A stretch of DNA of 64,000 nt from an uncultured Chitinophaga sp. (GCA_966211525.1 CBIHOZ010000009.1:3901-67900), one strand, 5' to 3'; shown: positions 44,294 through 59,733, numbered from the stretch's first letter. Made by a program: numbers and translations. The notes: generated by a model not told the origin, from the letters alone.

Positions 44294-44326
44294 AAAATAA
44301 GCCCCGGTTATCGGGGCTTATTTTTT
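44294..44326 (+). terminator. rny terminator; left boundary of the accessory region
   Basis: AAAATAAGCCCCG-GTTAT-CGGGGCTTATTTT. Confidence 0.85.
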
Positions 44327-44403
44327 ATACTGACTTATGATTTATCTTCCCTAAAAAGATTAATTGATGATATTACATTTCTTTGCATAGAAGATAACTT
44401 TAT

Positions 44404-44634
44404 ATGAAATCACGACTGAATCTTAGCATAGAACAAAATCTTTTAAATCAAATAAAACGATATGCTGACTCTAATCAAGTAAGCATCTCTGAACTTGTTG
44501 AAGAATACTTCAAAAGTGTTATACACCAAAAAACGCTCAACAACATCATCGATCTTGTTGAGAGATTACCGAACCATTCAATTTCTCCTTCGCAGAATTT
44601 GAAAAAAGGGTTCTATGAAGATTACAATAAATGA
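44404..44634 (+). CDS. DUF6364-like ribbon-helix-helix antitoxin, no toxin adjacent
   Basis: MKSRLNLSIEQNLLNQIKRYA...SISELVEEYF is an RHH pattern. Confidence 0.7.
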   Translation: MKSRLNLSIEQNLLNQIKRYADSNQVSISELVEEYFKSVIHQKTLNNIIDLVERLPNHSISPSQNLKKGFYEDYNK

Positions 44635-44652
44635 AATCAGTTATAGGCGGTT

Positions 44653-44826
44653 ATGAATAGAGAAAAAGTGATTGCTGTGCTTCAGGAACTTCCGCAGGAA
44701 TTTAACCTTGAAGAGCTAATAGATAAACTCATCTTTGTAGAAAAAGTAGAGCAAGGATTAAAACAACTCGATCAAGGAGAAAGTGTCCTTCACCAGAATG
44801 TAAAGGACATAATACCGTTGGCATAG
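44653..44826 (+). CDS. Small putative antitoxin (57 aa, not in ORF track)
   Basis: Hand translation MNREKVIAVLQELPQEFNLEELIDKLIFVEKVEQGLKQLDQGESVLHQNVKDIIPLA; resembles small proteins usually found upstream of RelE/ParE toxins. Confidence 0.6.
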   Translation: MNREKVIAVLQELPQEFNLEELIDKLIFVEKVEQGLKQLDQGESVLHQNVKDIIPLA

Positions 44827-44857
44827 AACTATCCGTAACGTATTTACATTGCTTACG

Positions 44858-45169
44858 CTAAGCTTTTTCTCTGTGCCCCTTTGAGCCTCCTTCGAGCCCT
44901 CCGTGCAATTGGATTTCGTTGTCATCATCATCCGCCTCATGCCACCCACGAGTTTCCTTCGCAGCCCTATCCAGCAACTCGAATAGCAGCGTAAGATCAT
45001 CCATCCAACTATCAAACTCTGGCGACAGAAAGTCTTTGTTATGCCCTATATATTCAATCAATAACGTGCGCAGGCACCGGTTAAGCCGCTCCGGCGGAGT
45101 ATATAACATAAAATGGTGAAAGGCCTCCGCCAACCGTTCACTAACAATCCGTTCATCTGTGTGTGACAT
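44858..45169 (-). CDS. Hypothetical protein divergent from XRE regulator
   Basis: 103-aa ORF; acidic C-terminus runs into a CACAGAG-type repeat. Confidence 0.55.
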   Translation of the reverse strand: MSHTDERIVSERLAEAFHHFMLYTPPERLNRCLRTLLIEYIGHNKDFLSPEFDSWMDDLTLLFELLDRAAKETRGWHEADDDDNEIQLHGGLEGGSKGHREKA

Positions 45170-45286
45170 ATAACATTAAGGTTTAATGGCGGCAAATAGC
45201 ACCCCGCTTAAAAAGTACCGCACCACACGACAAAATATATAACGACCTCGAAGGGTTGTTTTTTACCTATCAACTATTTTTTACAT

Positions 45287-45715
45287 TTGAGTATGACAGA
45301 GAAACTTCACATTGGCAGAAAAGTAGCACGCCTGCGCGAGTTACGAGGCATAAAACAAGAAACGTTAGCTGAACAGTTAGGCATTAGCCAACAGGCTGTT
45401 TCCAAGTTAGAGCAAAGTGAGAATATCGAAGATACTACGCTCGATCGCTTAGCAAAAGCATTGGGATTCACCTCGGATGCTATAAAGAACTTCAGCGAAG
45501 AATCTATACTATATAACATTCAGAATAATTACGAAGGTGCTACCAATAACGTTGTACAACAATATCAATGCACCTTCAATCCTCTTGATGAGTATAGGAA
45601 CGAAGTAAAAGAAAACAAACGCCTGAGCGAAGAAAATAAAAAACTATATGAATCTCTTTTGAAAGAGAAAGATGAAAAGATTGCGTTGTTGAAGAAGATG
45701 TTGGAGGGGAAGTAG
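45287..45715 (+). CDS. XRE family HTH transcriptional regulator
   Basis: RELRGIKQETLAEQLGISQQAVSKLE helix-turn-helix with a C-terminal coiled coil. Confidence 0.9.
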   Translation: MSMTEKLHIGRKVARLRELRGIKQETLAEQLGISQQAVSKLEQSENIEDTTLDRLAKALGFTSDAIKNFSEESILYNIQNNYEGATNNVVQQYQCTFNPLDEYRNEVKENKRLSEENKKLYESLLKEKDEKIALLKKMLEGK

Positions 45716-45747
45716 TTTTAAAGTTTAAACCTTACCAAAAGTAAGTC

Positions 45748-46374
45748 GTGATGACAACCTTAAGAGAGTTTGAAAAAGAAATTAGAGAAAGAGAAAAACT
45801 CCTTAAAAACATTCTTTTACACAAAAGGGATTTTGAATTTCTCAATACCCCTGGAACTCCTGAGCTTATTCGTTTTTTAGCAAAGCATCCTTTATTTGGC
45901 AGATCTAAAGATGCAATCTTCAAGCTTTTATGTATTGAAGTGCACAAACTTTTTTCCGATTTAAAATGCGACAAGTTCAAATTAACTCAACTACTAGAAA
46001 AGATTAAGGAAAATAGAAAAAAAGCAGAATGGAGCGACTGTCTCCAAAAACATGATATCGAACACGTAGAGAAGCTAATCACTCGAGGATTAAGAAATGA
46101 AGCTATAGCAGGACTTAGACGTTACAGGAATAAATACCTAGCACATACTGACATAGAAAAAACAGATGCAACATTTTTTTTAAGCCATTTTTACACGCTT
46201 ATCGAGACCGCATTGGAAGTTATCGATTTTTTGAGAAAGAAAGTTCTTAAAGAAGAATTTAACCTTGAACTATACATACCAGCAGATGGATTCGAAGAAT
46301 TTCGAAGTTTGGCAACAACAAATACTCAATCAGGGTCCCTCGTAGTTCCCAAGGCAAGTGACGCTAATACTTAG
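45748..46374 (+). CDS. HEPN-domain protein (AbiU2-like candidate)
   Basis: RNKYLAH matches the HEPN Rx4-6H motif in an all-helical ~200-aa protein. Confidence 0.6.
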   Translation: MMTTLREFEKEIREREKLLKNILLHKRDFEFLNTPGTPELIRFLAKHPLFGRSKDAIFKLLCIEVHKLFSDLKCDKFKLTQLLEKIKENRKKAEWSDCLQKHDIEHVEKLITRGLRNEAIAGLRRYRNKYLAHTDIEKTDATFFLSHFYTLIETALEVIDFLRKKVLKEEFNLELYIPADGFEEFRSLATTNTQSGSLVVPKASDANT

Positions 46375-46568
46375 TCAGTAAACTTTCAATTAATCATACC
46401 TAATCGCCATTTAGCCCCCATCACCCACTACAACTCTCAATAGCAGAATCGTTCAAGTAATTATATCTTAATCTAGCAATTTGTCTATACTATATGTGAC
46501 TAACGATTTTACTAAAAGACAAAGTGTAAATAACATTAAGATGGCCCATTCCTTTTTATCCGTAGAGA

Positions 46569-47006
46569 ATGCCCCACACAGAAAGAACAATCTGTGTAAC
46601 AGATTCTTTCCTCCGTCTCTTTATGTATTTGTTCATTGAAGCTATTAATAAAAGTGGACTAACGCAGAACCAACTTAACATCTATAATCATTATGAATTA
46701 GAGTTAAAGCAAGTGAACACCTCTTTCATTGACTTCAAACTACAGGAAATATATGAAGATACTGAATTAATGAGCTGGTATACTTTGGCTCTCGACACAC
46801 TATCTTCATCACTCGATTCGAATGGAAAGGCTATAGACAACAATTACTTAAATGAGATAAAAGAATTAAAAAAGAACGACAGTAACTACACCAGACCTAT
46901 TGAGATCGGCAAACTTAAAAACTTGATCAATGATTTATACTGGGTTCTTGGTAAAGAAAATATCTATCCGTCTGATGACTTTAAATGGTTCGAAAAACCA
47001 ATATGA
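46569..47006 (+). CDS. Hypothetical protein (immunity-like)
   Basis: 145-aa acidic cytoplasmic ORF; no family recognised. Confidence 0.6.
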   Translation: MPHTERTICVTDSFLRLFMYLFIEAINKSGLTQNQLNIYNHYELELKQVNTSFIDFKLQEIYEDTELMSWYTLALDTLSSSLDSNGKAIDNNYLNEIKELKKNDSNYTRPIEIGKLKNLINDLYWVLGKENIYPSDDFKWFEKPI

Positions 47007-47020
47007 CATTGCTCCTATAC

Positions 47021-47057
47021 GCACCATCACGGTCACTGGCCGCCGGGACTCTGATGC
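47021..47057 (+). repeat. Type-B hairpin repeat, degenerate
   Basis: GCACCATCACGGTCACTGGCCGCCGGGACTCTGATGC, 14 nt after the stop at 47006. Confidence 0.65.
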
Positions 47058-47058
47058 C

Positions 47059-47100
47059 TAGTAGCAGTATCGCTGTTTTGAGAAAGATATAGTTTGTAAT
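47059..47100 (+). repeat. Type-C 42-bp repeat, copy 1 (diverged)
   Basis: TAGTAGCAGTATCGCTGTTTTGAGAAAGATATAGTTTGTAAT aligns with 54132 and 54601. Confidence 0.55.
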
Positions 47101-47137
47101 TTCAACGTACCACGTTAGTAGACACTCCTTCTCCGCA

Positions 47138-47437
47138 ATGAAAAAACTGAAATCAATTTTAGGACTTTTAATAATTGCTTTACTCTCAGCTTCGTGTAAG
47201 AGTTATTACAACGATACAATTGACTGGATGGACAACATCGAATTGGGAACAAGCTTGGAGGACGTCAAGAGAAACCAACCCAACTTTGTTGAGATTGACT
47301 GGAGTAAACCTGACACACTTGATGAAGGATTAAGATTTAGAATTAAAAAAATTAAAGGGAGCAACGACATATTGAACATGAACCACTTTGTGGTGTTCTC
47401 TGACAATAAATATGCGGGACGAGAATCTATTAAATAA
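47138..47437 (+). CDS. Small lipoprotein
   Basis: Lipobox LSASC. Confidence 0.75.
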   Translation: MKKLKSILGLLIIALLSASCKSYYNDTIDWMDNIELGTSLEDVKRNQPNFVEIDWSKPDTLDEGLRFRIKKIKGSNDILNMNHFVVFSDNKYAGRESIK

Positions 47438-47463
47438 GATCATAGCGGCAGACATCAGTTTTT

Positions 47464-47570
47464 AAGTCTCCGAAGAGTCTCCCGCCTCGGGGACTCTTAC
47501 GGGAGCACGCACTTAGCAACAGGCAGCTTTTAAAAAACGCATAGTCCCGAAACGGAGACTATGCTTGGAC
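47464..47570 (+). repeat. Type-A 107-bp double-hairpin element, full copy
   Basis: AAGTCTCCGAAGAGTCTCCCGCCTCGGGGACTC...GCATAGTCCCGAAACGGAGACTATGCTTGGAC. Confidence 0.95.
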
Positions 47571-47661
47571 TGTCTTCTTCCCACGGGCCATAATATATCT
47601 GTCTACAAATGGATATAAACAATGAGATTGATATATTAGAATATTAGCGATAATATTTTAG

Positions 47662-48378
47662 ATGGGAATCTTCGACCTTTTCAAAAACAAGACAGCGGAA
47701 GACTACTTCGGAAAAGTAATCAGTTTTACGCTCGACAATATTAGCAAAGCAGTTTTGAGTAATTGCAAAAACGGTGATTATGTAAATCTTTGGACAAAGT
47801 CGGACATGGATAGAGTAATGATCTACGCACCAAATTCTATTGGTGGGTCTGGGCAATTAGGAGTGGTACCAAGCAAGTATGCTAAAATTATCAAAGCACA
47901 TATTCTTGGACAAAAAGATTATGGGATTTCCGGACCGTCAACAAATAATTATAACGCTTCAATAATAAATATATCTGGGGCAAGTTGTACAATCGGAATC
48001 AAGTTATACTCAACCAAAGAACACGAACGAATTATACAGGAAATGATTAATCGTGACAAGGCTGCAACAAAAGCGGACTTGGAGAAGAAGTATAAAATGA
48101 CCAAGCCTGTGGAAATTAAGTTTAATATAAAGAGAACTGACGTGACGAATTTTGACAACTTGAAACTTAAAGTCTTTGAGAAGGAATTTTATATTGAGTA
48201 TCCATATGACTTTAAACTACAATTAGTCGATGACCACAATCGAATTGTAGCTGAAACGGTTTCGCAGAAGGAAAAAGTAACGAGAATTGTAAAAGGCTTC
48301 TATAACGGACAGAAAATTAGTATCACCAAAATTGAAAAAGAGCGTGACTATCTGAAAACCACAATAAGTGGTGAGTAA
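47662..48378 (+). CDS. Hypothetical protein (possible HIRAN-like N-terminal fold)
   Basis: 238-aa ORF; GDYVNL...VMIY...QLGVVP pattern is reminiscent of HIRAN. Confidence 0.6.
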   Translation: MGIFDLFKNKTAEDYFGKVISFTLDNISKAVLSNCKNGDYVNLWTKSDMDRVMIYAPNSIGGSGQLGVVPSKYAKIIKAHILGQKDYGISGPSTNNYNASIINISGASCTIGIKLYSTKEHERIIQEMINRDKAATKADLEKKYKMTKPVEIKFNIKRTDVTNFDNLKLKVFEKEFYIEYPYDFKLQLVDDHNRIVAETVSQKEKVTRIVKGFYNGQKISITKIEKERDYLKTTISGE

Positions 48379-48474
48379 AAAGAACTACTTAAAATAGATG
48401 AGTACAATCCATATGAATAACAATAACGAAATATATTTTGGAGACAAAAAAAATATATACCCGAGAAGAAACTT

Positions 48475-48526
48475 AAGTCTCCGAAGAGTCTCCCGCCTCG
48501 GGGACTCTGGCGGAAGCACGCACTTA
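48475..48526 (+). repeat. Type-A element, 3'-truncated
   Basis: Identical left hairpin; similarity ends after GCACGCACTTA. Confidence 0.9.
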
Positions 48527-48580
48527 TTAGCACAAATCCTTGTCGTGATGAGTTCTTAAATTTTAATAATTTATACATAC

Positions 48581-48787
48581 ATGGACTATACTGCAATATT
48601 TAAACAAACCTATAATGATTTATTGCCAGACTCCCTGGAGACCGCGCTAATTGCCATGAAGATTGCAGGTGCATCGCAGATAGACAGCATCAGAGTAGTG
48701 ATGTCTGAGCTAAAAATAACTCTTCGGGAAGCGGATGCTTTAATCCTAAATTCCAAGACTTGGGAGGATAAGAAGGAGTTAACTTAG
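48581..48787 (+). CDS. Small hypothetical protein (immunity-like)
   Basis: 68 aa, GASQIDSIRVVMSELKITLREAD...NSKTW. Confidence 0.55.
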   Translation: MDYTAIFKQTYNDLLPDSLETALIAMKIAGASQIDSIRVVMSELKITLREADALILNSKTWEDKKELT

Positions 48788-48850
48788 AAATTAAGGAACG
48801 ACATCGCTGACATATGGAGCGGTCCTGAATAGCAGTATCGATCATAATTA

Positions 48851-48957
48851 AAGTCTCCGAAGAGTCTCCCGCCTCGGGGACTCTGTCGGAAGCACACACT
48901 TAGCAACGGCCAGCTTTTCAAAAACGCATAGTCCCGAAACGGAGACTATGCTTGGGC
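48851..48957 (+). repeat. Type-A element, full copy
   Basis: Both hairpins identical to the 47464 copy. Confidence 0.95.
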
Positions 48958-48997
48958 ACCAACGCTCAATATTTCTTTTTGAAACTTAGAGAGAAAG

Positions 48998-49879
48998 ATG
49001 AAAAAAATCATAATTGCAATTCTTGTTAGTATACTTTTCTCAAGTTGTTTTATTGGTGCAGGTACTCATGGAAAAATAGAAAGTTACCAACTGCCTTATT
49101 CTAATGAACATATTGTTAACGCTGTCGATCAATTTCTTTTAGCTAATCCTTTGTATTTTGAAAGTACTGAAGATAATGGTTGGATTTACATTAAGATACC
49201 TCCAGAGAACAACAGATTCGGATTCACCATTGGAGGTCAATCTGAAATCGTGTTAATAGCGGTAGGCAAAGAAAACGAAACAACTAAATGGAATAAAGAT
49301 CTCTCGTCTTCAGAGAAGAGAACGTTCTCTGAAATCTTCAAAGAGAAATTCGTAAACAAATTACACCCTGCAACTACATCTGAAGATTTACTTAAAAGCC
49401 CCTTTACTCTTACCATTAATAACAATGCGGATGCTGATTTATGGCCAGAGTATATTTTTACATCGGAGACACTAATAAGCTACCCGCTACCTTTTGAATT
49501 TGATAGTTTGAAACTTGATTACTTCGAGGATCTAGTTGTATCCTTTAGCAAACAGATAGGGCGTCAAATACAGGTAAATCAATTTTACAATATTTTCAGG
49601 ATAGACAAAGATTACTCAGGTTACATTGCAGACAGTATTTATATTACCAAGCTGTATCGCACAATAGGATGTAACAAAAAGGCCATAACCATTTTTGATA
49701 ACATTGCATGGGGCCAGTATATAGATGTTAAAAATCAACGTAACAGAATTCAAGACTATAAAAGATTACGCAAACAAAAAACAGAAAGAGGATATAGAGA
49801 AACAGATGTTTACTCTGAATTTTCAGAAGAACGCTGGATGCTGAGTGATAGACATCTAATTCGCAATCAAGATGATTGA
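48998..49879 (+). CDS. Lipoprotein, unknown function
   Basis: Lipobox LFSSC. Confidence 0.75.
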   Translation: MKKIIIAILVSILFSSCFIGAGTHGKIESYQLPYSNEHIVNAVDQFLLANPLYFESTEDNGWIYIKIPPENNRFGFTIGGQSEIVLIAVGKENETTKWNKDLSSSEKRTFSEIFKEKFVNKLHPATTSEDLLKSPFTLTINNNADADLWPEYIFTSETLISYPLPFEFDSLKLDYFEDLVVSFSKQIGRQIQVNQFYNIFRIDKDYSGYIADSIYITKLYRTIGCNKKAITIFDNIAWGQYIDVKNQRNRIQDYKRLRKQKTERGYRETDVYSEFSEERWMLSDRHLIRNQDD

Positions 49880-49888
49880 TGTTCTGAC

Positions 49889-49998
49889 GCACCATCAGAG
49901 TCACCGGGCCCGTCTCGGTGACTCTGGCCGAAGCACGCACTTAGCAACAGGCGCTCTTCAAAAGAAGCATAGTCCCGAAACGGAGACTATGCTTGGAC
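49889..49998 (+). repeat. Hybrid element: type-B left hairpin plus type-A right part
   Basis: GCACCATCAGAGTCACCG...CGGTGACTCT followed by GGCCGAAGCACGCACTTAGCAACAGGC...GCATAGTCCCGAAACGGAGACTATGCTTGGAC. Confidence 0.92.
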
Positions 49999-50224
49999 AG
50001 CAAGTGATTCTAAAGCAATCTTCCCTATTCGTTTTTCAAGCATAAAAAACTTCATTTTATTTTACCCATACGTTAACCATTAACGAGGTATTAATATTTA
50101 CATGTTGATAGTATAAGAGTAATTACCGGTAGAATAATTTGAGCAAAACCTGATTTTCCCGGTATAGTATATCATACATAAATGCGTGTTATTGTGTTCA
50201 ACAAACTAAAATTCGTATTTCTTT

Positions 50225-51400
50225 ATGTTAAAAAAAACTACGCTACCAACACTTTGTCTACTGTTAACATTTGCATTTAGTTGTAACGACCAAAGTGTGA
50301 TTGAACAACATGATACTGTTGTCCCATTCGATCCCAGTACAACTACAACTCTACCGCATGATACAGGTACACCAGCCTATACATTTAAGTTAACAAGCCA
50401 GGCTAGTATATATGCAAATGTAAAAAGTACTTTTTCCAATATAAAAGTTGACTCTGACCTGGTTTCAGTTAACAACGAAGGTGTAAAGATAGCCGACTTT
50501 TCGCGTCTGGATAATATACCCGCTAATCTGGCATTTCTAAAAAATGTAAAAGTTTTTGATGATGAAGCAGGCACAATGCAGGCATTGACAAACGAGGAGT
50601 TTAGACAATTAATGATCAATCAGCTTAACGCTTGCGAATTTTCCGATGCGTTCAAGCAAATATTTATAGACTTCTACGATTACATCAAAAACACGATGCC
50701 TACTAAATCTTATGAATCTTTTAACATAAAATGCAATAGTTTTATGGAAAGGGTAGCTATAGGCGCTTCCGCATCAAAATATACGGAACTGGAAAAATTT
50801 GCAGTTGTTCAGGTCTTTGCTCAGTTAAGACAACTGGTAAAGTATACCTACGAAAATCCAAGCTCAGCATGGAATAACACAGCAAATGGACGTAGCAGCT
50901 CTGGTGGTTGTTTGCCTAAGACAAAAGATGAGTGGAAGGCCATTGCGGAGGCTGCATTTACAGGTGGAGTGATGGCAGGTGTTAGCTTAGGAATCAAAGG
51001 CATCGAAGCCGGTGCTATAGCAACCACTGCTGCCGGTAATCCTGTTGCCGGGGGCGTTGTAGGTGGGATAATTGGCTTTACAATTGGCTTTACCAGTGGT
51101 GCAATTGGCAGTGGCAGTGTAAAACTAATGTTTGATTGCTTATGGAAAAAAGCCGCCAGCTTAAATGTGCCATTAACAACTTTTGTTTGTAGCGGAAAGG
51201 TATATCAAGCTTACACCAATTCAATTCCAACTGGATGTGAAGCTGGAGGAAATAGCATTATCACACAACAGCCTTATCAAGATCATGTTAAACGAATGCT
51301 AAAAGGAATTTTTGAGTTAGGTGTTGTACCGAACGCAGGCAAACAAAAGATTAATGTTAATGTGGAGAATGACATTAAATTTGTAGTATCAAACTTATGA
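50225..51400 (+). CDS. Lipoprotein with glycine-zipper hydrophobic segment (candidate antibacterial pre-pro-toxin)
   Basis: Lipobox FAFSC (Cys20); NGR at residues 221-223; GxxxG-rich stretch at about residues 247-297. Confidence 0.6.
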   Translation: MLKKTTLPTLCLLLTFAFSCNDQSVIEQHDTVVPFDPSTTTTLPHDTGTPAYTFKLTSQASIYANVKSTFSNIKVDSDLVSVNNEGVKIADFSRLDNIPANLAFLKNVKVFDDEAGTMQALTNEEFRQLMINQLNACEFSDAFKQIFIDFYDYIKNTMPTKSYESFNIKCNSFMERVAIGASASKYTELEKFAVVQVFAQLRQLVKYTYENPSSAWNNTANGRSSSGGCLPKTKDEWKAIAEAAFTGGVMAGVSLGIKGIEAGAIATTAAGNPVAGGVVGGIIGFTIGFTSGAIGSGSVKLMFDCLWKKAASLNVPLTTFVCSGKVYQAYTNSIPTGCEAGGNSIITQQPYQDHVKRMLKGIFELGVVPNAGKQKINVNVENDIKFVVSNL

Positions 51401-51642
51401 AACGTGTAATTAGCTTTTTAGGATACTTCGTTTTCTTCTTGGTATCCTTGTACGCATTAAGTCATGTTAGATTTTTTTCTACAACTGCAATGAACATGTC
51501 AGAAACAAAAAATATAGCGTGGCTTATAACCACCTCATTTGTATTGAGCTTGGGTTATACATTGACTAGCGAGAGGATAAAAAGATTCATTGGCAATACA
51601 ACAAAAAAAATAGTAGACAAAAAGAAGCATGATCCGAACTGA
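51397..51642 (+). CDS. Two-TM small membrane protein (candidate immunity)
   Basis: ATGA overlap with the upstream gene; two hydrophobic helices and a basic tail. Confidence 0.6.
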   Translation: MKRVISFLGYFVFFLVSLYALSHVRFFSTTAMNMSETKNIAWLITTSFVLSLGYTLTSERIKRFIGNTTKKIVDKKKHDPN

Positions 51643-51655
51643 GTATCAGACCTGA

Positions 51656-51683
51656 CTCCATCAGAGTCACCGGCCGGTGACTC
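51656..51683 (+). repeat. Type-B hairpin
   Basis: CTCCATCAGAGTCACCGGCCGGTGACTC, 13 nt after the stop. Confidence 0.85.
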
Positions 51684-51744
51684 CTTAAGCCTGCCCCAAA
51701 GACACCCAATCTCCATTTCAAAAGTTGAGATAATATTTTAAATT

Positions 51745-51851
51745 AAGTCTCCGAAGAGTCTCCCGCCTCGGGGACTCTTGCGGAAGCACACACTTAGCAA
51801 CAGGCGTTTTTCAAAACACGCATAGTCCCGAAACGGAGACTATGCTTCGAC
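51745..51851 (+). repeat. Type-A element, full copy
   Basis: Both hairpins identical to the consensus. Confidence 0.95.
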
Positions 51852-51889
51852 TGTCATAATCCTTAAATTGTAATTTGATTTTGCCAAAG

Positions 51890-52066
51890 ATGAGAAAAGA
51901 GATTGTGACTGATTCAACTCCAAAACCAGATGAGTCCTCAAAAGAGGATATCATTGAAAGACTGATAATAATTGAGAAAATAAAGAAAGGCCGGCAGCAA
52001 ATAAAAGAAGGTAATGTTAATACTGAAGACCAGGCAAGGGTAAAGCTAGATAAATGGTTACGTTGA
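51890..52066 (+). CDS. Small putative antitoxin, orphan
   Basis: MRKEIV...EDIIERLIIIEKIKKGRQQIKEG...KLDKW; same family pattern as 44653-44826 (LI..EK...G..Q...G). Start placed at ATG 51890. Confidence 0.55.
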   Translation: MRKEIVTDSTPKPDESSKEDIIERLIIIEKIKKGRQQIKEGNVNTEDQARVKLDKWLR

Positions 52067-52097
52067 TTTTCCTTCTAACACAGTGGCATCAAATTTT

Positions 52098-52565
52098 GTG
52101 AAACACATCTCCTATCTATACTTACTTATACTGGTAAGCTGTACCACGACCACATCATCTCTTCAAGAAGAAGAGAAAAAACTTGTCGGAAACTGGAAGG
52201 AGCCAGTAGATAATGGAGCGATACAAGGGTCGTATATGGAGTTCCATGAAGACCGCACTGGTGTTTTCGGACCAATCATTAATGTTAAGGGCAAAGTCGG
52301 AATTGCACCCTACTTGTCGTTCCTAATGAAAGACTGGCGAATACAAAACGACACACTTTCTATTCAATTCGAAATGCAGCCGGGTTACGCGGTCTATAGC
52401 CCCGATGGAAAGAAAATCAGAAAAAACGATAAGCCCAGTTATGTCCGCTATATTGTTTGGGAGGTGTCCGACACAGTGATTGTCCTGGAAGATCTCGTTA
52501 GTGAATTTCCAGGCATAAAGGAACGTCTGAAAAAGTCGGAGAAAATGGAACTTTTGAATGAGTAA
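52098..52565 (+). CDS. Lipoprotein (lipocalin-like candidate)
   Basis: Lipobox ILVSC; LVGNWKE motif; GTG start at 52098 (52083 also possible). Confidence 0.65.
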   Translation: MKHISYLYLLILVSCTTTTSSLQEEEKKLVGNWKEPVDNGAIQGSYMEFHEDRTGVFGPIINVKGKVGIAPYLSFLMKDWRIQNDTLSIQFEMQPGYAVYSPDGKKIRKNDKPSYVRYIVWEVSDTVIVLEDLVSEFPGIKERLKKSEKMELLNE

Positions 52566-52572
52566 ATTGCAT

Positions 52573-52589
52573 CTCCATCAGAGTTACCG
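52573..52589 (+). repeat. Type-B hairpin, left arm only
   Basis: CTCCATCAGAGTTACCG, 7 nt after the stop. Confidence 0.65.
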
Positions 52590-52670
52590 TCCGCTATATT
52601 TTAACTTGTTCCGTATGCAAACCCATATATATACTAATGATATTTCTATATTAGGGCAAGCCCGCAGGCA

Positions 52671-53189
52671 ATGAACAACATCAGAAAAGTACTTAGAGCA
52701 AAGCACTGGCAAATTTTTTCAATTTTGATGGGTATCTCATTTATTCAGGGATCGAGTCAAGGGTCCAGTAGTGGGATAAGCACCATCTTCTATATTCTGT
52801 ACATCGTTATTTATATTGGCTGGCTTTTAGTGCTAGGCATGGGATTAAAATCCATGCGACTGAATGTCGCGATGAATTATGCGCTCTTTTTAGCAACAGG
52901 GATTGCGCTTATTACGGTGGTCGTTTCTGTTAAAATTTTAGAAACAATGGGGTTGCTGAACAACTTCGAAAATGATGCAATAGCAATACCAATGCTGGTA
53001 CTCATACTTACTTCGTTAATCATAGTTTGCAGTTTCATTGCAAAGAACTTAAAAATAAATGAAAAGGGAGAGGACATTGATATTAATGATTACTTCGGAG
53101 ACATTCTCCGCTTGATATTCTGGCCTATAGGTATATGGAGTATTCAGCCTCGCATAAATAGATTAGCGGCCAAGTTGATCAGTCACTAA
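52671..53189 (+). CDS. Four-TM membrane protein
   Basis: Hydrophobic segments; C-terminal FWPIGIWSIQPRIN. Confidence 0.75.
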   Translation: MNNIRKVLRAKHWQIFSILMGISFIQGSSQGSSSGISTIFYILYIVIYIGWLLVLGMGLKSMRLNVAMNYALFLATGIALITVVVSVKILETMGLLNNFENDAIAIPMLVLILTSLIIVCSFIAKNLKINEKGEDIDINDYFGDILRLIFWPIGIWSIQPRINRLAAKLISH

Positions 53190-53221
53190 CTGGGCTATAA
53201 TGCATCATTTGCCTTTGCTAC

Positions 53222-53246
53222 CCTATCAGAGTCACCGATCCTCTGA
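53222..53246 (+). repeat. Type-B hairpin, internally deleted
   Basis: CCTATCAGAGTCACCGATCCTCTGA. Confidence 0.65.
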
Positions 53247-53315
53247 ATTGAAATAAGAAGGACTTATAGAATGGAGTATAGCAAAAATCACATTTAAAGC
53301 GAAACAATTTTAACT

Positions 53316-53489
53316 ATGAAACAATCAATACTCTATATTGTGCTTGGCGCCTTAATCATCATTGGTGGATTGCGTCAAAATGAACACAGATTAATTCCAG
53401 AGTTTCTGTACTATATATTCGGGGGTATATCACTGATCTTTGGAATATATAAATTATTAACTAACGAGCCTGACGACAAGCAGCAATAA
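53316..53489 (+). CDS. 57-aa two-TM membrane protein (not in ORF track)
   Basis: Hand translation MKQSILYIVLGALIIIGGLRQNEHRLIPEFLYYIFGGISLIFGIYKLLTNEPDDKQQ; the TAA stop overlaps the next repeat. Confidence 0.6.
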   Translation: MKQSILYIVLGALIIIGGLRQNEHRLIPEFLYYIFGGISLIFGIYKLLTNEPDDKQQ

Positions 53490-53595
53490 GTCTCCGAAGA
53501 GTCTTCCGCCTCGGGGACTCTAGCAGAAGCACACACTTAGCAACAGGCAGCTTTTCAAAAAACGTATAGTCCCGAAACGGAGACTATGCTTCGAC
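53488..53595 (+). repeat. Type-A element, full copy
   Basis: One substitution in each hairpin relative to the other copies. Confidence 0.95.
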
Positions 53596-53665
53596 TTTAG
53601 CAACATTCCGTGTAATAGGCGACCTACATCGTTATACACAAAAAAACATTTTAGACTTCTGAACC

Positions 53666-54127
53666 TTGACAACAATACATCTCGTAACCGAAATAGAAGC
53701 CGATATATATACCTGTTTTGACGCAGCGCGTGATATTGACATTCACAAGCTCTCAACAAAACAAACAAACGAAATTGCCATTGCCGGTCGCACAAGCGGG
53801 CTTTGCGAATTAGGTGACATGATAACATGGGAAGCAACACACTTCGGAATAAGACAACAATTAACCGTTGAGATTACCAAGTTCAACCGACCTTACTTCT
53901 TTGAAGATAAAATGCTGAAAGGCGCCTTTAAAAGTATGCAGCACAAACATTACTTCGAAGAGAAAGACGGCAAAACCATAATGATCGATAAATTCGAATA
54001 TGAAGTTCCGTATAGTATAGCAGGTAAAATCTTCAATACTATAATTTTAAAGCGCTACATGACTTCGTTTCTCGTAACCCGAAATCAGTTTATCAAATCC
54101 GTTGTAGAAGCGAAACGAGCACATTGA
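53666..54127 (+). CDS. SRPBCC family protein
   Basis: FDAARDIDIH, WEATHFGIRQ, GAFKSMQHKHYF; TTG start. Confidence 0.8.
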   Translation: MTTIHLVTEIEADIYTCFDAARDIDIHKLSTKQTNEIAIAGRTSGLCELGDMITWEATHFGIRQQLTVEITKFNRPYFFEDKMLKGAFKSMQHKHYFEEKDGKTIMIDKFEYEVPYSIAGKIFNTIILKRYMTSFLVTRNQFIKSVVEAKRAH

Positions 54128-54131
54128 TGCT

Positions 54132-54173
54132 TAATAGCAAAAATCACTATCTTGATAAGATATAGTTCATAAC
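54132..54173 (+). repeat. Type-C repeat, copy 2
   Basis: TAATAGCAAAAATCACTATCTTGATAAGATATAGTTCATAAC, 4 nt after the stop. Confidence 0.75.
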
Positions 54174-54182
54174 ACGTAACAA

Positions 54183-54596
54183 ATGAAAAGACCTCAAGAC
54201 TTCTTTACAATCTATAAGCAATCGGCATGGGATAAGGACACCGAAGGCATGATTGCATTGTACCATGACAGCGTTGTGATTTTTGACATGTGGACGAAAG
54301 GGTATCAAACAGGACTTACAGAATGGTCTAGCGTAATCAAAAATTGGTTAGGCTCATTAAGAGACGAAAGTGTAAATGTGATCTTTGAAATGATAGAACT
54401 TCACGAAGGTAACGATGCCGGGTTTGGAAGTGCTTTAATTACTTATCAAGCCATTTCAACGAACAACACAATTGTAAGAAGCATGAAAAACAGAATTACC
54501 GTAGGGTTTATCAAACAGAAAGATGAGTGGAGAGTAATTCATCAACACACATCTGCTCCTATCAACTCCAACCTTGAAGCTATTTTGAATATCTGA
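54183..54596 (+). CDS. SnoaL/NTF2-like (YybH-type) protein
   Basis: IALYHDSVVIFD, WRVIHQHTSAP. Confidence 0.8.
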   Translation: MKRPQDFFTIYKQSAWDKDTEGMIALYHDSVVIFDMWTKGYQTGLTEWSSVIKNWLGSLRDESVNVIFEMIELHEGNDAGFGSALITYQAISTNNTIVRSMKNRITVGFIKQKDEWRVIHQHTSAPINSNLEAILNI

Positions 54597-54600
54597 TATT

Positions 54601-54641
54601 TAGTAACAAAATCATTATCTTGAAAAAATATAGTCTATAAC
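54601..54641 (+). repeat. Type-C repeat, copy 3
   Basis: TAGTAACAAAATCATTATCTTGAAAAAATATAGTCTATAAC, 4 nt after the stop. Confidence 0.75.
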
Positions 54642-54692
54642 CTCAGCCACCCCAGCATAAAAATTTTTGACAGTTGGTTTAAAACAAAAGTT

Positions 54693-55256
54693 ATGAGAAA
54701 ACTAGTTGCATCAATCAACATGACGCTCGATGGGTTTTGTGATCACACATCTGCAATTGCCGATGACGAACTACATCAACACTATACCGACCTGTTATTT
54801 AACGCGGGCGACCTTCTGTACGGAAGAATAACATACCAGCTCATGGAAGACTACTGGCCAACGGTAGTTAAAAATCCCACCGGCAATAAACGCACGGACG
54901 ACTTCGCTGTGATCATAGAAAACATTCCCAAAACTGTTTTCTCCCGAACGCTGAGTAATGTAAAATGGAAAAATGTAAAACTTGCCAAGAGAAGTCTTGA
55001 AGAAGAAGTTTTAGAACTCAAGCAATCGAACGATCATGGAGGTAAAGACATTTTAGTGGGCAGTCCGAGTTTAATTGCAGCGCTGACAAAACTTAATCTG
55101 TTTGATGAATACCAACTCTGCGTTCACCCGATTATAGCGGGACAAGGTTTAACATTGTTTAAAAATATAACCGACAGCATGGTTCTTAAACTTGTAAAGA
55201 CAAAAACACTTGGTGGTGGCCAAATAGTACTTTACTATGAGCCAGTGAAAAAATGA
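54693..55256 (+). CDS. Dihydrofolate reductase family (RibD C-terminal-like) protein
   Basis: NMTLDGF, LYGRITYQLM, DEYQLCVHPIIAG.G. Confidence 0.88.
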   Translation: MRKLVASINMTLDGFCDHTSAIADDELHQHYTDLLFNAGDLLYGRITYQLMEDYWPTVVKNPTGNKRTDDFAVIIENIPKTVFSRTLSNVKWKNVKLAKRSLEEEVLELKQSNDHGGKDILVGSPSLIAALTKLNLFDEYQLCVHPIIAGQGLTLFKNITDSMVLKLVKTKTLGGGQIVLYYEPVKK

Positions 55257-55410
55257 TTAGTCTTCTTTTATTCTCATCGTAACATAAGCAAAGTATATTC
55301 TTCGATTTAAGAATTAGATTTATCGATCCTGCTACCAAACATCAGAATTCAGGAGACCGATGACTCTAATGGGGTATCTAGATATATACTCCTACTCAAA
55401 TGCAATTGAT

Positions 55411-56013
55411 ATGTATAAAAAAATCCCTATAGCGTTAATAACATTCCGACTAGTTATTGTTCCAGTAATTTTAGGGCTAACCTATTATCTCAGAGATGAA
55501 GCACGGTCAATAGTACTTGTCCTAATGTACCTGGGTTTGATATCCGACATACTTGATGGAATTGTTGCCAGACATTTGAATGTTTCGTCTCCAGCCTTGA
55601 GGCGTTTCGATAGTCAGACTGATATGTTATTCTGGCTGTCTATAGGAGTAAGCACCTGGCTACTACATCCAGATCTTATTGCGAATAATAATATAGCAGT
55701 AATTACAATTCTTGCCATGGAAGTGATCTGCTATATGGTGAGCCTGCTAAAATTTAAAAGGGAAACCTGCACACACGCATTTCTCTCAAAGCTCTGGGGA
55801 ATAACACTGCTTATCGCTTTTACTTCTTTGATTGGATTTGACTATGCAGGCCTCCCTTTTGCAATAGCGATTACTGTGGGATTAGTTGCGCACATTGACA
55901 GAATACTGATCACGCTGGTCCTCCCGGCATGGACACATGATATACCAAGTGCTTATCACGCTTATCTTATCAGGAAAGGGATTCCGTTTAAAAAGAATAA
56001 ATTATTCAATTAA
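55411..56013 (+). CDS. CDP-alcohol phosphatidyltransferase family protein
   Basis: SDILDGIVAR...RRFDSQTD motif; start placed at ATG 55411. Confidence 0.85.
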   Translation: MYKKIPIALITFRLVIVPVILGLTYYLRDEARSIVLVLMYLGLISDILDGIVARHLNVSSPALRRFDSQTDMLFWLSIGVSTWLLHPDLIANNNIAVITILAMEVICYMVSLLKFKRETCTHAFLSKLWGITLLIAFTSLIGFDYAGLPFAIAITVGLVAHIDRILITLVLPAWTHDIPSAYHAYLIRKGIPFKKNKLFN

Positions 56014-56034
56014 TATACATTATCAAACTATACA

Positions 56035-56445
56035 TCATTTTGTTGTAATAACAGCCTTTGTAAGTCTTCCCCAAGCCACAAAAGCAGCTATACCAATAAA
56101 CACTATATTTATTCCAATATGCGATGCTTCCCCACGAGCAACGTGAAAAACAATCGCACACACCATCAGTACACAAAGCACTATAGCAGCTATTGGTGTA
56201 AGCTTCGGTTTGATGCGAGATAAAGATGGAAGAATTAACCCCATCGCCCCCAGTATATCAACTACACCGGTAAATTTCACGAACGCCACCGGCACCTGTC
56301 CTGTCCATGGCCACATAGTAGATAACTTCACAATAGGTTCAAACAATTTTGTAAGGCCGGCCCAGAGTAACATGCTTGCCAAAAGAACTTGTAGTATCCA
56401 GAGCACAATATGAAGGGTTTTCGATTTCTTCGGTTCAGTTGTCAT
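56035..56445 (-). CDS. DoxX family membrane protein
   Basis: LWILQVLLA, GVVDILGAMGLILP, FHVARGE; start placed at ATG 56445. Confidence 0.82.
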   Translation of the reverse strand: MTTEPKKSKTLHIVLWILQVLLASMLLWAGLTKLFEPIVKLSTMWPWTGQVPVAFVKFTGVVDILGAMGLILPSLSRIKPKLTPIAAIVLCVLMVCAIVFHVARGEASHIGINIVFIGIAAFVAWGRLTKAVITTK

Positions 56446-56572
56446 CTCACTATATATTTTCTTCGTTTGATGAGGCAAACCTATCTATATTTACTTTCGA
56501 ATGTATAGTACTATCCCAGCGGATAGCACTATCCTGATGGATAGTAACGGAAATTAAAATCAAGGATTAGAA

Positions 56573-56911
56573 ATGCTGACAACAGGGAGATGCCCATCGA
56601 ATATGCTTTCCATACGGGATGCTTTGGAAGCGTTGGAAGGAAAGTGGAAGCTGCTTATATTATTTTCATTGTCATCGGGACCAAAGCGTTTCAAGCAGAT
56701 ATCAAAAGAAGTGAACGGCATCACCGACAAAATACTTTCAAAAGAGTTGAAAAGTCTGGAGACGAATAAACTTATAAAGCGCGAGGTATATGATACATTT
56801 CCTCCGACCGTAGAGTACTCCATTACTCCGCATGGTATGTCACTTGAAAAATTAATGGACGAGTTACATTATTGGGGGCTAGCGCATCGGAAAAAGATTA
56901 TGGGCAAGTAA
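56573..56911 (+). CDS. HxlR family winged-helix regulator
   Basis: LEGKWKLLI, ITDKILSKELK, PPTVEYSIT; divergent from doxX. Confidence 0.9.
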   Translation: MLTTGRCPSNMLSIRDALEALEGKWKLLILFSLSSGPKRFKQISKEVNGITDKILSKELKSLETNKLIKREVYDTFPPTVEYSITPHGMSLEKLMDELHYWGLAHRKKIMGK

Positions 56912-57070
56912 ATATAAAAATCGCGGCTTCGGCAGACCTGCACATCTTGGAAACGTGGCGTCCTTTAAACATTTTTGTGATCGGGTAAGTCCAAAGCTTT
57001 TAAAGATGTAACCATACCAAACGAATCTGTTACTCAACCACTTTATTATACATCCTCGTCTTCGCATTTC

Positions 57071-58012
57071 ATGAACCTCATTCAAGTGACTCTCTCTGTA
57101 TTTCTACTCCTTTCTTTAATCCAGCCAACGCAAGCACAAGACACCCGCTGCGAGTGTTGCTCAAACTCATCGTTAAAGCTCAGGGAAGATTACGAAGCTA
57201 TTTTTCCACGCCTTGTTATCAAGAAGAACGGTATCACAGAAGTGATGGTCTATACGAGTCCTTCTGATTCCACTCAGGCGTCTGGCACGCGCTATAAGGA
57301 ATTAAAATTCAAGTTCGATCAAAAAGGACAGGTTATAGCCAGAGTACACTATAATCAAAACGGAACGCCTCATTCAATCTATGAGTTTGAAAGAAATGGT
57401 TCCGGAAAAATATTCAGGCAAACCTTTAGCTATCTGGACAGCGTTGAACAGAAGTCAATAGAACCGGCTGCACCAGAGATCACCGACTATTTCTATAACC
57501 TGAAGGATAGACTTATCAAAACTAAAAAACGAAATACAAAAGGTCAGGTAATGCCTGACATTATGAGCGACTTCACAAAGTATGAATATGATAATACAGG
57601 CCGTACTACAAAAGTAACGTCACAATATTATTATGGTGAAAATGGACCGGCTACTTCATCGCGTGTTGTTATCTATACCTATAAAGACATCCACGGCCAG
57701 TCACAAACCTTTATTGACGGCAAGCTCTTTATTACAACAAAAACACAGTATACCAAAGGCTGGAAGCCGCTAACAGAAATAGGTTACGATGGTGACTCTA
57801 TAACTTTTGAAAGTAAATATGAGTACGACCAAAGTGGCAAGCCGACACGCTATGAAACAAAAAGCACAACTATAACCAGCGAATGTCCGCATAGAGGAAC
57901 CTACACAGATGTATATAGCTATAATGGTGACGGGTTGCTCAGTATTTTATCGCATAGCTATGAAGATAAGAAGTGTGTGATGGTGTTTGAGTATAAGAGT
58001 CCTTCGCTGTAG
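57071..58012 (+). CDS. Secreted protein with YD-like repeats
   Basis: Signal peptide; YEYDNTG, YEYDQSG, YSYNGDG repeats. Confidence 0.65.
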   Translation: MNLIQVTLSVFLLLSLIQPTQAQDTRCECCSNSSLKLREDYEAIFPRLVIKKNGITEVMVYTSPSDSTQASGTRYKELKFKFDQKGQVIARVHYNQNGTPHSIYEFERNGSGKIFRQTFSYLDSVEQKSIEPAAPEITDYFYNLKDRLIKTKKRNTKGQVMPDIMSDFTKYEYDNTGRTTKVTSQYYYGENGPATSSRVVIYTYKDIHGQSQTFIDGKLFITTKTQYTKGWKPLTEIGYDGDSITFESKYEYDQSGKPTRYETKSTTITSECPHRGTYTDVYSYNGDGLLSILSHSYEDKKCVMVFEYKSPSL

Positions 58013-58027
58013 AGTAAACGCAATTTC

Positions 58028-58345
58028 ATGAATTATCAGTCGGTTAACCTAAACATTCACTACAACGCAGGGAGTGAAATCTGGAATAAAATTTCTTCCA
58101 TATATGAACGAATGGACGGATGGCTAGGCTTTGGCAGGGGAGGGAATGAAGGCGAAGAAGGAATCCCTTATTGGTTTAGCTATAACGAGACAGAAAAACA
58201 TATCTCTGCATCAGTAGAGCCTGGCGGGCTTTCGTTTTCAGGACTAATGGAGGACGAGGAATGGGAACTCTGGATTGCCAAATTAAAATCTATCTCATCC
58301 GATATTCTCGGATTTAAAGTTGTCGATCCGGAGACTGGATCTTAA
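58028..58345 (+). CDS. Small acidic hypothetical protein (immunity-like)
   Basis: 105 aa, Trp-rich and acidic. Confidence 0.6.
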   Translation: MNYQSVNLNIHYNAGSEIWNKISSIYERMDGWLGFGRGGNEGEEGIPYWFSYNETEKHISASVEPGGLSFSGLMEDEEWELWIAKLKSISSDILGFKVVDPETGS

Positions 58346-58392
58346 GCTTAGCTACATTTAAATAGCTATATTCGTTCATTTTCCATTCATCC

Positions 58393-59109
58393 ATGCAGTC
58401 ACAAATAAAGTATATTCTAACGCTTGTAGCACTGGTATACAGCACCATTGCGAATTCGCAACGAGGCCATATTTATGTTTCCGAAGACAATAAAGGTTAT
58501 ACGGATAGTGAATTTCTAAAGCTTTGGTATGCCTCAGGTGAATTGGTGAATCTTGAAATTGTTAACCGAAAATCTGACAGTCTTTTCTTTAGACTAAAAC
58601 ACCATGATAACGCCAGTTACCTGAAAGATATATTAAAAGGCAGTAACTCCTGCGGTAGAAGGAAAAGTAAACCTGTCGATCAAATCAAGAAGGAACTATT
58701 GGCAGGCCAACTAGCTACTATAAAGCTTGTCTCGTTTAAATATCCCGACACCGTCTTTACCTTAAGCACTCCGAAAAAAGATGGTAAAGTTGACTTAGAT
58801 GCTATGTTCGAAGTGAAGACGCTGGGAAAGGATATAGAAGATATACTTCTTGATATTCTTGTTAACTACAGAAACATTAGTAAAATAGGGCAAGTCATAA
58901 TGTGTTATGAACCCAGAAATGCCATTCTTTTCGTAGATAAGACTGATAATATTTTAGGCTATATTGAAATATGCTTTGGTTGTCAGAAATATATAGCGAG
59001 TGAAAAAAGTCTGCAGGATTTAAGTTTCTGTGAGGATAAGTTCGAAGCACTTCGAAAAATATTTATGGCAGCAGGGATAAAGTATGGAATGAATTATCTT
59101 GAGTATTGA
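58393..59109 (+). CDS. Secreted hypothetical protein
   Basis: Signal peptide; C-terminal CYEPRNAILF...EICFGC. Confidence 0.7.
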   Translation: MQSQIKYILTLVALVYSTIANSQRGHIYVSEDNKGYTDSEFLKLWYASGELVNLEIVNRKSDSLFFRLKHHDNASYLKDILKGSNSCGRRKSKPVDQIKKELLAGQLATIKLVSFKYPDTVFTLSTPKKDGKVDLDAMFEVKTLGKDIEDILLDILVNYRNISKIGQVIMCYEPRNAILFVDKTDNILGYIEICFGCQKYIASEKSLQDLSFCEDKFEALRKIFMAAGIKYGMNYLEY

Positions 59110-59119
59110 AATAATCTCC

Positions 59120-59170
59120 CAACAGTCTGGAGACTGTTGCCAATGCTGGCACAAGTCGGAGACTTGCGCC
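59120..59170. repeat. REP-like hairpin doublet
   Basis: CAACAGTC-TGGA-GACTGTTG and GGCACAAGTC-GGA-GACTTGCGCC. Confidence 0.8.
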
Positions 59171-59195
59171 GGTTAATTTAACGACCTCCAGGTCA

Positions 59196-59495: not shown

Positions 59496-59733
59496 TCAAC
59501 AGCATCCAATCTCTAAATCTTCCGCATAATCAATTACGGATTACTCTATTTGATCCAGGGTTTCCCGATATCCATAAAAGTATAGGTTTATGGAATAAAT
59601 ATATAGGAATTGTTGCTGACAAAAATTGAAATTACCACAGGAAGACTACATCAAATTTTATTTTGAAAGAGTAAAATTTATAGTCTGCTATTTCCCTATA
59701 TTCATGGTTTCAATAACCCTTGTATACCAGCCT

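Follow-up and report, generated by a model that had tools for sequence, protein, structure and literature searches.

In Escherichia coli, repetitive extragenic palindromes (REPs) are short imperfect palindromes with an unpaired 5' foot, GT[AG]G, which lie outside and 3' of genes as inverted pairs (bacterial interspersed mosaic elements, BIMEs) in hundreds of dispersed copies. In the REPtron, inverted copies bracket a single HUH-Y1 gene, that of TnpA-REP or REP-associated tyrosine transposase (RAYT; PDB 4ER8). In Pseudomonas fluorescens, an inverted REP pair with a short spacer forms an evolving unit of ~100 bp, the REP doublet forming hairpins (REPIN), with a cognate single-copy RAYT (Bertels and Rainey 2011, PMC3116915). 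For Bacteroidetes, RAYTs of subclass 2.6, which carry the motifs NH[LIV]H and YIH[QN]NP, were found to be flanked by 'atypical secondary structures' without GT[AG]G (Quentin et al. 2018, PMC6006769). Here we analyze an element of ~107–109 bp that recurs in a 64,000-nucleotide stretch of DNA (the window) deposited as uncultured Chitinophaga sp. (GCA_966211525.1 CBIHOZ010000009.1:3901-67900). We consider it highly probable that this element is a REPIN, composed of two inverted REP-type hairpins of a Bacteroidota RAYT lineage. Its REP family is previously undescribed, belongs to a known kind of system and is notable for its confinement to gene junctions within an island. The literature searched contained no earlier description of the motif or of a RAYT in Cytophagales, and the GAGTC-T-CCG hairpin is not among the REPs in the accessible part of the supplementary table of Quentin et al. 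2018 (PMC6006769).

A repeat finder detected two families, one with five copies of ~127 nt and the other with six copies of the 5' 57 nt of that repeat; every copy lies at 47442–53592 on the + strand. These correspond to five full copies of the element (47464, 48851, 49892, 51745 and 53488) and one half copy (48475). Each copy is laid out as a foot and hairpin 1 on the + strand, a linker of 44 nt between the hairpin cores, and then a like hairpin on the - strand. Hairpin 1 reads GAGTC-T-CCCG-CCT-CGGG-GACTC (GAGTCTCCCGCCTCGGGGACTC) and occurs exactly at 47475, 48486, 48862 and 51756 and with one mismatch at 53499. Hairpin 2 reads GCATAGTC-CCG-AAA-CGG-A-GACTATGC (GCATAGTCCCGAAACGGAGACTATGC) on the + strand, with its bulged T on the - strand, and is exact at 47539, 48926, 49967 and 51820, with one mismatch at 53564. 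In shuffles of the window the expected number of matches is 0.00 for hairpin 1 and 0.00 for hairpin 2. A preliminary description of this DNA had proposed an inverted pair of one bulged-T hairpin; the sequence reading, the exact recurrences and the shuffles bear this out. The five sites that it named all carry the element, yet it overlooked the copy at 49892, and 48475 is merely a 5' half. Likewise, the 'third AGTCTCCG' said to open the element is present at 47465, but it is the 5' foot and outer stem of hairpin 1 rather than a separate arm.

The two arms represent different REP subtypes, with GAAGAGTC and GCATAGTC outer stems, and their mutual complementarity is only ~75%. Both hairpins are minimum-energy folds on either strand, as RNA or DNA (z-scores of -2.6 to -5.5). 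The window holds 11 of these hairpins, 26–40 nt each, all intergenic or at the ends of open reading frames (ORFs). The preliminary description had set near-identical hairpins against looser linkers. The hairpins are exact or one change apart, except for the substitute of hairpin 1 in the 49892 copy. The linker, too, shows fair conservation, with the motif GAAGCAC[A/G]CACTTAGCAAC in every full copy.

All hairpins were oriented with the extra base on the 5' side. A single architecture is shared by 68 hairpins from ~30 Bacteroidota loci. An unpaired foot, K-T-C ([G/T]-T-C), is separated by one nucleotide from a lower stem of 10 bp that closes with AGTC; a single extrahelical base then leads into an upper stem of 3–4 bp with a loop of 3 nt. 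Among 61 hairpins surveyed, 51 have T as the extrahelical base, seven have A and two have C (two probably mis-oriented), and one lacks such a base. The inner stems covary (CCG/CGG, CCCG/CGGG, CTCG/CGAG, CCTG/CAGG, CCGG/CCGG and CCC/GGG). A register in which the 'bulge' is taken up by a T.G wobble was considered, prompted by the 49892 variant, where an A at this position pairs with T. It was rejected because in CTCG/CGAG and CCTG/CAGG no register other than the bulged one preserves the Watson-Crick pairs, and the A found at the bulge position in seven copies is further evidence against it. Thus the unpaired T after AGTC, previously noted in both hairpins, is a true extrahelical base, as the inner-stem variants demonstrate.

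The outer stem was assessed in a relaxed set of the 68 hairpins, collected with no demand on that stem. For each of outer-stem pairs 1–6 the Watson-Crick count exceeds that in all 1000 column shuffles, with 2–4 pair types each. Pairing ends after these six pairs, and K-T-C at -10 to -8, three bases further out, is conserved yet unpaired and constitutes the foot. In an alignment of 48 distinct sequences (A4), 93.7% of the cells are paired as compared to 81.7% in shuffles, double-sided changes occur in 8 of 14 pairs, and the covariation score is 0.25 versus 0.064 when shuffled, with no slid register above 0.05. No weight was given to the AGTC/GACT columns or to that part of the inner stem which had been fixed, like them, by the way the hairpins were collected. 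The alignment and covariance model suggested earlier as a check therefore find the bulge and the stems conserved, with compensatory changes, at ~30 loci from several Bacteroidota lineages.

With filters switched off, a scan of the entire window with the covariance model derived from A4 yielded ten significant matches, all in 47464–53597, as five +/- pairs and a lone + match at 48475; within a doublet, a + match is followed by a - match with 32 nt between them. Over 241 kb of other loci the same model gave 98 matches. In copy 1 (47464–47572, +), the foot and hairpin 1 occupy 47464–47503 (core 47473–47498) and hairpin 2 with its foot 47535–47572 on the - strand (core 47539–47564), at 40.2 bits (+) and 54 bits (-). 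The half copy (48475–48526, +) comprises the foot, hairpin 1 and the first 14 nt of the linker without hairpin 2, with a model match at 48475–48514 (+, 44 bits). Copy 2 (48851–48959, +) is matched at 48851–48890 (+) and 48922–48959 (-). At 49892–50000 (+) lies a hybrid copy, of which the linker and hairpin 2 are normal (model match 49963–50000, -, 53 bits). In place of its hairpin 1 stands GAGTCACCG...CGGTGACTC, which at 49896–49926 forms CAGAGTCACCG-GGCCCGTCT-CGGTGACTCTG, fully paired and without a bulge. Copy 3 (51745–51853, +) has exact hairpins 1 and 2, both matched by the model, and copy 4 (53488–53597, +) has one change per hairpin, its hairpin 1 being a weak match of 21 bits. Often TTAA or a stop-like TAA/TAG/TGA adjoins or overlaps the foot in the 5' flanks of the doublets, e.g. 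at 47461–47465, 48472–48476 and 51742–51746, and the same is seen outside the REPs of four loci from other genomes (L016, L021, L024 and L029; such loci are numbered with L throughout). These flanking bases may belong to the REP consensus or represent a site of targeting or cleavage.

The link to RAYTs comes from other genomes. When the 18-nt core of hairpin 2 was scanned against one genome per prokaryotic species, 27 stretches were found, 26 of them from Bacteroidota (Ohtaekwangia, Chryseolinea, Cyclobacteriaceae, Flammeovirgaceae, Chitinophaga metagenome-assembled genomes (MAGs) and others); the remaining one, in Halobacillus, matches only partially and by chance. In a motif screen, 7 of these 26 loci proved to have an ORF with the HUH (NH[LI]H) and Y (YIH[DET]NP) motifs at most 200 nt from the hairpin, and tblastn added more RAYT ORFs, truncated copies among them. 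Altogether, the hairpin brackets RAYT (HUH-Y1) genes at no fewer than nine loci (L013, L017, L021, L027, L029, L031, L033, L034 and L036), which is the association with a RAYT/TnpA gene that the preliminary description had asked to look for. Truncated RAYT copies occur in L007/L009, where they are adjoined by a CATCAGAGTC-type hairpin. The RAYT ORFs match NCBIfam NF047646 ('REP-associated tyrosine transposase') over the full length of that model with E values of 1e-15 to 5e-26. Furthermore, a profile of four RAYT sequences has E. coli TnpArep (4ER8) as its best match in PDB (E 2.8e-5); a PDB search with one single RAYT sequence gave no match. The family is large: the protein collection contains no fewer than 5841 members, and the Joint Genome Institute (JGI) has named many of them RayT.

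On the coding strand of these RAYT genes, the T-form hairpin with its foot, TTCTCCGCAGAGTC-T-CCG-TTT-CGG-GACTCTGCGG, stands upstream and its reverse complement downstream. By the covariance model this convergent layout, in which the upstream REP lies on the coding strand and the downstream REP on the other, holds for 7 of 7 RAYTs for which both flanks were available. In the reciprocal test, RAYTs picked by protein similarity alone proved to be flanked by the hairpin in four of four cases: P0080 (L031/L032), P0076 (L033), P0118 (L034/L035) and P0139 (L036). Since the flanks of the RAYT genes share the convergent layout of the doublet, the element amounts to a RAYT locus in which only the two REPs are left, joined by a linker. 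Hence, because the same hairpin brackets RAYT genes in the same arrangement, the REPIN/RAYT option that had been raised for a substrate of a single-strand-specific enzyme is supported. Of the two findings that the preliminary description had named as refuting it, a lack of conserved bulge and stems and a lack of any HUH or tyrosine recombinase linked to the motif, neither was made. The upstream REP of L033 has a foot, AAGTCCCCGAAGAGTC, of the subtype of hairpin 1 in the window, and P0139/L036 is annotated as a MAG of Ohtaekwangia sp., the genus of the window. A metagenome scan with a 20-mer of the ATAG subtype returned a single short contig (L030) and no RAYT flanked by the exact subtype of the window.

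Several of these loci show further arrangements of REPs. Upstream of the Ohtaekwangia RAYT, at 4600–5020 of L036, there are three repeats of a REP together with the first ~40 nt of the RAYT gene; four REPs at a spacing of 171 nt lie downstream of the RAYT in L034 (4597–5148), and three at a spacing of 41 nt in L020 (1043–1162). In L017 (3285–3322) and L027 (7028–7046) the RAYT frame enters the downstream REP, and the last residues of the protein are therefore encoded by the hairpin. At 1–312 of L031/L032 (Cyclobacteriaceae), the RAYT stands in a run of small co-oriented ORFs that includes a ParE toxin pair and starts just after the gene of a XerC/D-like tyrosine recombinase.

With this in mind, the element can be compared with the systems described above. 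Like REPs and BIMEs of E. coli, it consists of short imperfect palindromes with an unpaired 5' foot, arranged as inverted pairs in extragenic positions 3' of genes; as in the REPtron, inverted copies bracket a single HUH-Y1 gene, and the RAYT profile of the Bacteroidota clade matches 4ER8. It differs in its foot (K-T-C versus GT[AG]G), in the strictly placed single extrahelical T after AGTC, and in a copy number that is apparently low and clustered rather than dispersed. The RAYTs, moreover, have very low sequence similarity to that of E. coli and read FE at the 'WQ' motif position in most members. With the REPINs of P. fluorescens the element shares two inverted REPs, a short spacer and a unit of ~100 bp, whereas its copies are confined to one 6-kb stretch between orphan genes, its arms are of different subtypes, and no RAYT lies nearby. 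Also comparable are the RAYTs of Bacteroidetes subclass 2.6 or Bertels group 5, which belong to the same phylum and share the HUH motif NH[LIV]H, the Y motif YIHxNP and flanking non-GTAG hairpins that recur in the genome. Judged from these motifs, the present clade may belong to subclass 2.6.

A plausible mode of action follows by analogy with E. coli TnpA-REP and IS608 TnpA. In single-stranded DNA (ssDNA), each strand would fold its own hairpin, and a RAYT supplied in trans would recognize the shape of the hairpin together with its foot and flipped-out base. The ends of the insertion sequences (ISs) IS608 and ISDra2 may serve as a model here, as they too are ssDNA hairpins with an extrahelical T that is read by an HUH-Y1 enzyme, with flanking bases guiding cleavage as a feature of the IS. 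The RAYT would then cut and rejoin the DNA at the outer feet, and the doublet could be copied, lost or exchanged as a discrete unit. While the sequences themselves establish the anatomy of the element, its conservation and covariation and its association with RAYT genes in other genomes, it is from this analogy that we infer cleavage, a function for the bulged T and any current mobility of the element in this genome. As likely side effects, the copies would provide patches of homology where island modules reshuffle, and antisense transcripts may terminate at the G and T tract that follows hairpin 2 on the - strand.

Several observations weigh against the assignment as a REPIN. All matches of the model fall in a stretch of 6.1 kb, and the remaining 58 kb of the window has none, which is unlike classical REPIN populations. 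The exact 18-mer occurs only one to four times per reference genome, a minimum count given that loops vary. In place of the canonical GT[AG]G foot stands [G/T]-T-C; however, as the absence of GT[AG]G is documented for Bacteroidetes subclass 2.6, it does not exclude the wider REP family. Three of four RAYTs score 57–60 bits and thus fall below the curated cut-off of 80 for NF047646, with one above it, and Pfam Y1_Tnp is weak or absent. Neither the 64-kb window nor the Ohtaekwangia-type loci L004, L014, L015 and L019 contain a RAYT or other HUH gene; any mobilization would therefore have to take place in trans. Comparison of L001 with L019/L014 gave no clean pair of empty and filled sites that would speak for transposition as opposed to recombination. 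Finally, partial ascertainment by AGTC/GACT and at least two inner pairs inflates the paired fraction of those columns.

The genomic setting is that of an ordinary Bacteroidota chromosome, with trigger factor, clpP/X, lpxB, lepA, SusC/D, pheT, zapA and rny. Across rny the window is 95% identical to O. kribbensis (L019), and its identity to MAG UBA5867 (L014) and O. koreensis (L015) is 90% and 87%, respectively. From these identities we place it as Ohtaekwangia-like, within Fulvivirgaceae and Cytophagales. It is precisely these relatives (L004, L014, L015, L019 and L030) that carry the full doublet of ~107 bp; in other genera, the hairpin is found singly or in doublets with a shorter linker (L006, L016 and L029). 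Directly after the canonical hairpin-plus-T terminator of rny (44300–44325), a stretch of low GC content begins (0.36–0.40 versus 0.41–0.45), populated by small, mostly co-oriented ORFs, and this strain-variable island spans 44300–60000 of the window. It includes toxin-antitoxin-like pairs (DUF6364 with a 57-aa ORF, HTH_3 with HEPN/AbiU2, and in L001 DUF6364 with PIN). Many island ORFs have no Pfam, NCBIfam or PADLOC match, and exact-protein look-ups of two of them returned no match. Every element lies directly 3' of a + strand island ORF and is co-oriented with it.

This position raises the question of whether the element primarily acts in RNA or transcription, as a 3'-untranslated-region stabilizer or an insulator, with hairpin 2 and its T tract serving as an antisense intrinsic terminator. 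REP/BIME elements of E. coli are known to stabilize upstream mRNA, and the folds found here are stable. Moreover, on the - strand hairpin 2 is followed by G and four to six T, located in the linker GCTTTTCAAAAACGC (47539–47535 region and equivalents), which a simple scan rates as terminator-like in four of five copies; this arrangement could be an antisense terminator. The preliminary description had dismissed terminators for lack of a U tract, which holds for the + strand but not entirely for the - strand. Nevertheless, the sense strand carries no U tract, whereas rny does have its canonical terminator, and the REPs that flank RAYT genes in other genomes lack the T tract. At the gathering threshold, Rfam finds only a tRNA in the window and no match for the element. 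In addition, a strand-specific extrahelical base and an unpaired foot on both strands better fit recognition of ssDNA by a protein. We thus regard a primary role in RNA as unlikely; such a function would be compatible with a REPIN as an exapted side effect.

A bolder idea is that the system is an HUH-enzyme analogue of integrons, in which orphan genes bounded by REPINs or by a second REP family (see below) are gained, lost and exchanged beside rny and at a second locus via single-strand cutting and joining by RAYT at the feet. If true, the REP doublets of Ohtaekwangia-like Cytophagales would be joints of a cassette-like system and more than selfish repeats, a prospect to which we give little credence. 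The DNA after rny is variable, with gene content that differs between O. kribbensis, O. koreensis, UBA5867 and L001, a metagenomic strain of 95% identity; the O. kribbensis island measures only ~3.3 kb, after which come DUF2480, tsaB and a peptidase S41 gene. In favor of a REPIN, the doublet behaves as a discrete unit, with homology breaking exactly at its outer ends: L030 matches the window from 47461 on and differs upstream, L014 shares its right flank with the copy at 51745 (break at 51743) and its left flank with the copy of L019, and L019 breaks at 5594. Soil and rhizosphere contigs from other samples contain 11–34% of the words of the island, and contig joints with several different upstream partners fall at the exact 5' end of the doublet (47464/5 and 48472/3). 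Apparent breakpoints inside hairpin loops of contigs (47038 and 51675) were dismissed as alignment effects of variant loops rather than crossovers. The homologue of window 49.9–56 kb resides on another O. kribbensis contig and is again punctuated by doublets. On that contig (contig 3, L004, homologous to 49909–56017 and distinct from the one bearing rny), the cassette part is 93% identical to the window and the neighboring SnoaL/RibD_C/CDP-OH-transferase genes 83–85%, a contrast that suggests rearrangement or separate histories.

Much the same observations could be read in terms of recombination sites of an attC-like cassette system, with a site-specific recombinase that moves units of one ORF plus element downstream of rny. 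As in integron attC or CALIN (clusters of attC sites lacking integron-integrases) arrays, a variable stretch of the chromosome holds a run of mostly orphan ORFs in one orientation, each followed by a structured repeat whose strand is marked by extrahelical bases. The island here is also low in GC (37–39%). Close relatives differ in island content with junctions at elements, homologous modules sit on two O. kribbensis contigs, and L004 has an extra ORF between direct hairpin copies. Quantitatively, 17 ends of inter-genome alignments (high-scoring segment pairs) fall within 30 nt of a hairpin, as compared to 5.5 expected and a maximum of 14 in 2000 randomizations. However, repeats are mutually homologous and attract alignment ends trivially, and most breakpoints in the hairpin-free 44.3–47 kb part of the island lie away from hairpins. 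The analogy with IntI and attC in the preliminary description turned out to be mere resemblance. A by-eye look for the core sites RYYYAAC/GTTRRRY in both orientations found no fit, the ends being AAGTCTCCG... and ...GCTT[C/G]GAC, and the R and L boxes (R''/R') and the AAC/GTT core of attC are missing. The element forms two independent hairpins on opposite strands instead of one long bulged hairpin on the bottom strand. No tyrosine recombinase was found in the window or beside the arrays of L004, L014, L015 and L019, and no integron integrase appeared in Pfam scans of the island and its flanks or among the top 25 of the 70 families found in the other ORFs. Moreover, the same hairpin demonstrably belongs to RAYT loci. 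A dedicated cassette mechanism thus has a low probability, and sites of an attC-like system are quite improbable; REPs that act as recombination patches in a plastic island are the likely explanation. A non-autonomous derivative of IS200/IS605 (a miniature inverted-repeat or palindrome-associated transposable element, MITE/PATE) mobilized by TnpA of IS200 instead of RAYT is hardly conceivable, in spite of IS608-family ends being subterminal hairpins with an extrahelical T recognized by TnpA and of a weak IS200 match of the L006 RAYT (E 7.7e-6, below the cut-off), as the earlier likening to IS608 TnpA proved superficial: the hairpins are inverted around the linker, or around RAYT in other genomes, whereas in IS200/IS605 both ends, left and right, form their hairpins on one strand and are co-oriented around tnpA/tnpB, the adjacent genes fit the RAYT model better than the IS200 model, and neither a tnpB or IS-like multicopy unit was seen nor tnpA/tnpB found in the window.

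The assignment as a REPIN provides a concrete and testable DNA substrate for a large, almost uncharacterized branch of Bacteroidota RAYTs, whose REPs figure in the literature only as 'atypical secondary structures'. The substrate is defined by a K-T-C foot, a 10-bp stem, one flipped-out T and a 3–4-bp stem, and it makes the role of the extrahelical base in recognition by RAYT directly assayable. Furthermore, the clustering of the doublets at strain-variable junctions of orphan genes offers a natural case for asking whether REPINs shape islands of accessory genes.

Besides the doublets, the island harbors a second REP family (fam2) of the same architecture, CCATCAGAGTC-A-CCGG-CCG-CCGG-GACTCTGATG, with A at the bulge position. 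The hairpin is followed by a tail of ~45 nt, CTTAGTAGCAGAATCG...ATATAGTCTATAA; it occurs in both orientations, is often decayed, and is also present in L004, L014, L015 and L019. A degenerate hairpin at 47024–47099 (+), CCATCA(C)GGTCAC(T)GG-CCG-CCGGGACTCTGATG, with the tail CCTAGTAGCAGTATCG...GATATAGTTTGTAA, has homologues at L014 434, L015 3097, L019 5025 and L004 5495. At 51664–51683, 60 nt before copy 3, lies a hairpin of the fam2 type that is a perfect palindrome, GAGTCACCGGCCGGTGACTC. A degenerate remnant at 53225–53264 (+) has kept its 5' arm ATCAGAGTCACCG while its 3' arm has decayed, and a degenerate element in reverse orientation at 55300–55374 (-) overlaps the start of ORF 55360. Tails alone are found near 46438, 54125 and 54601. 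The extra ORF of L004, 179 aa long, lies between two fam2 hairpins. Elsewhere in the window, two tandem paralogous DUF4199 genes at 31394–31864 and 31957–32427 (-) contain a direct repeat of 163 nt with 71% identity.

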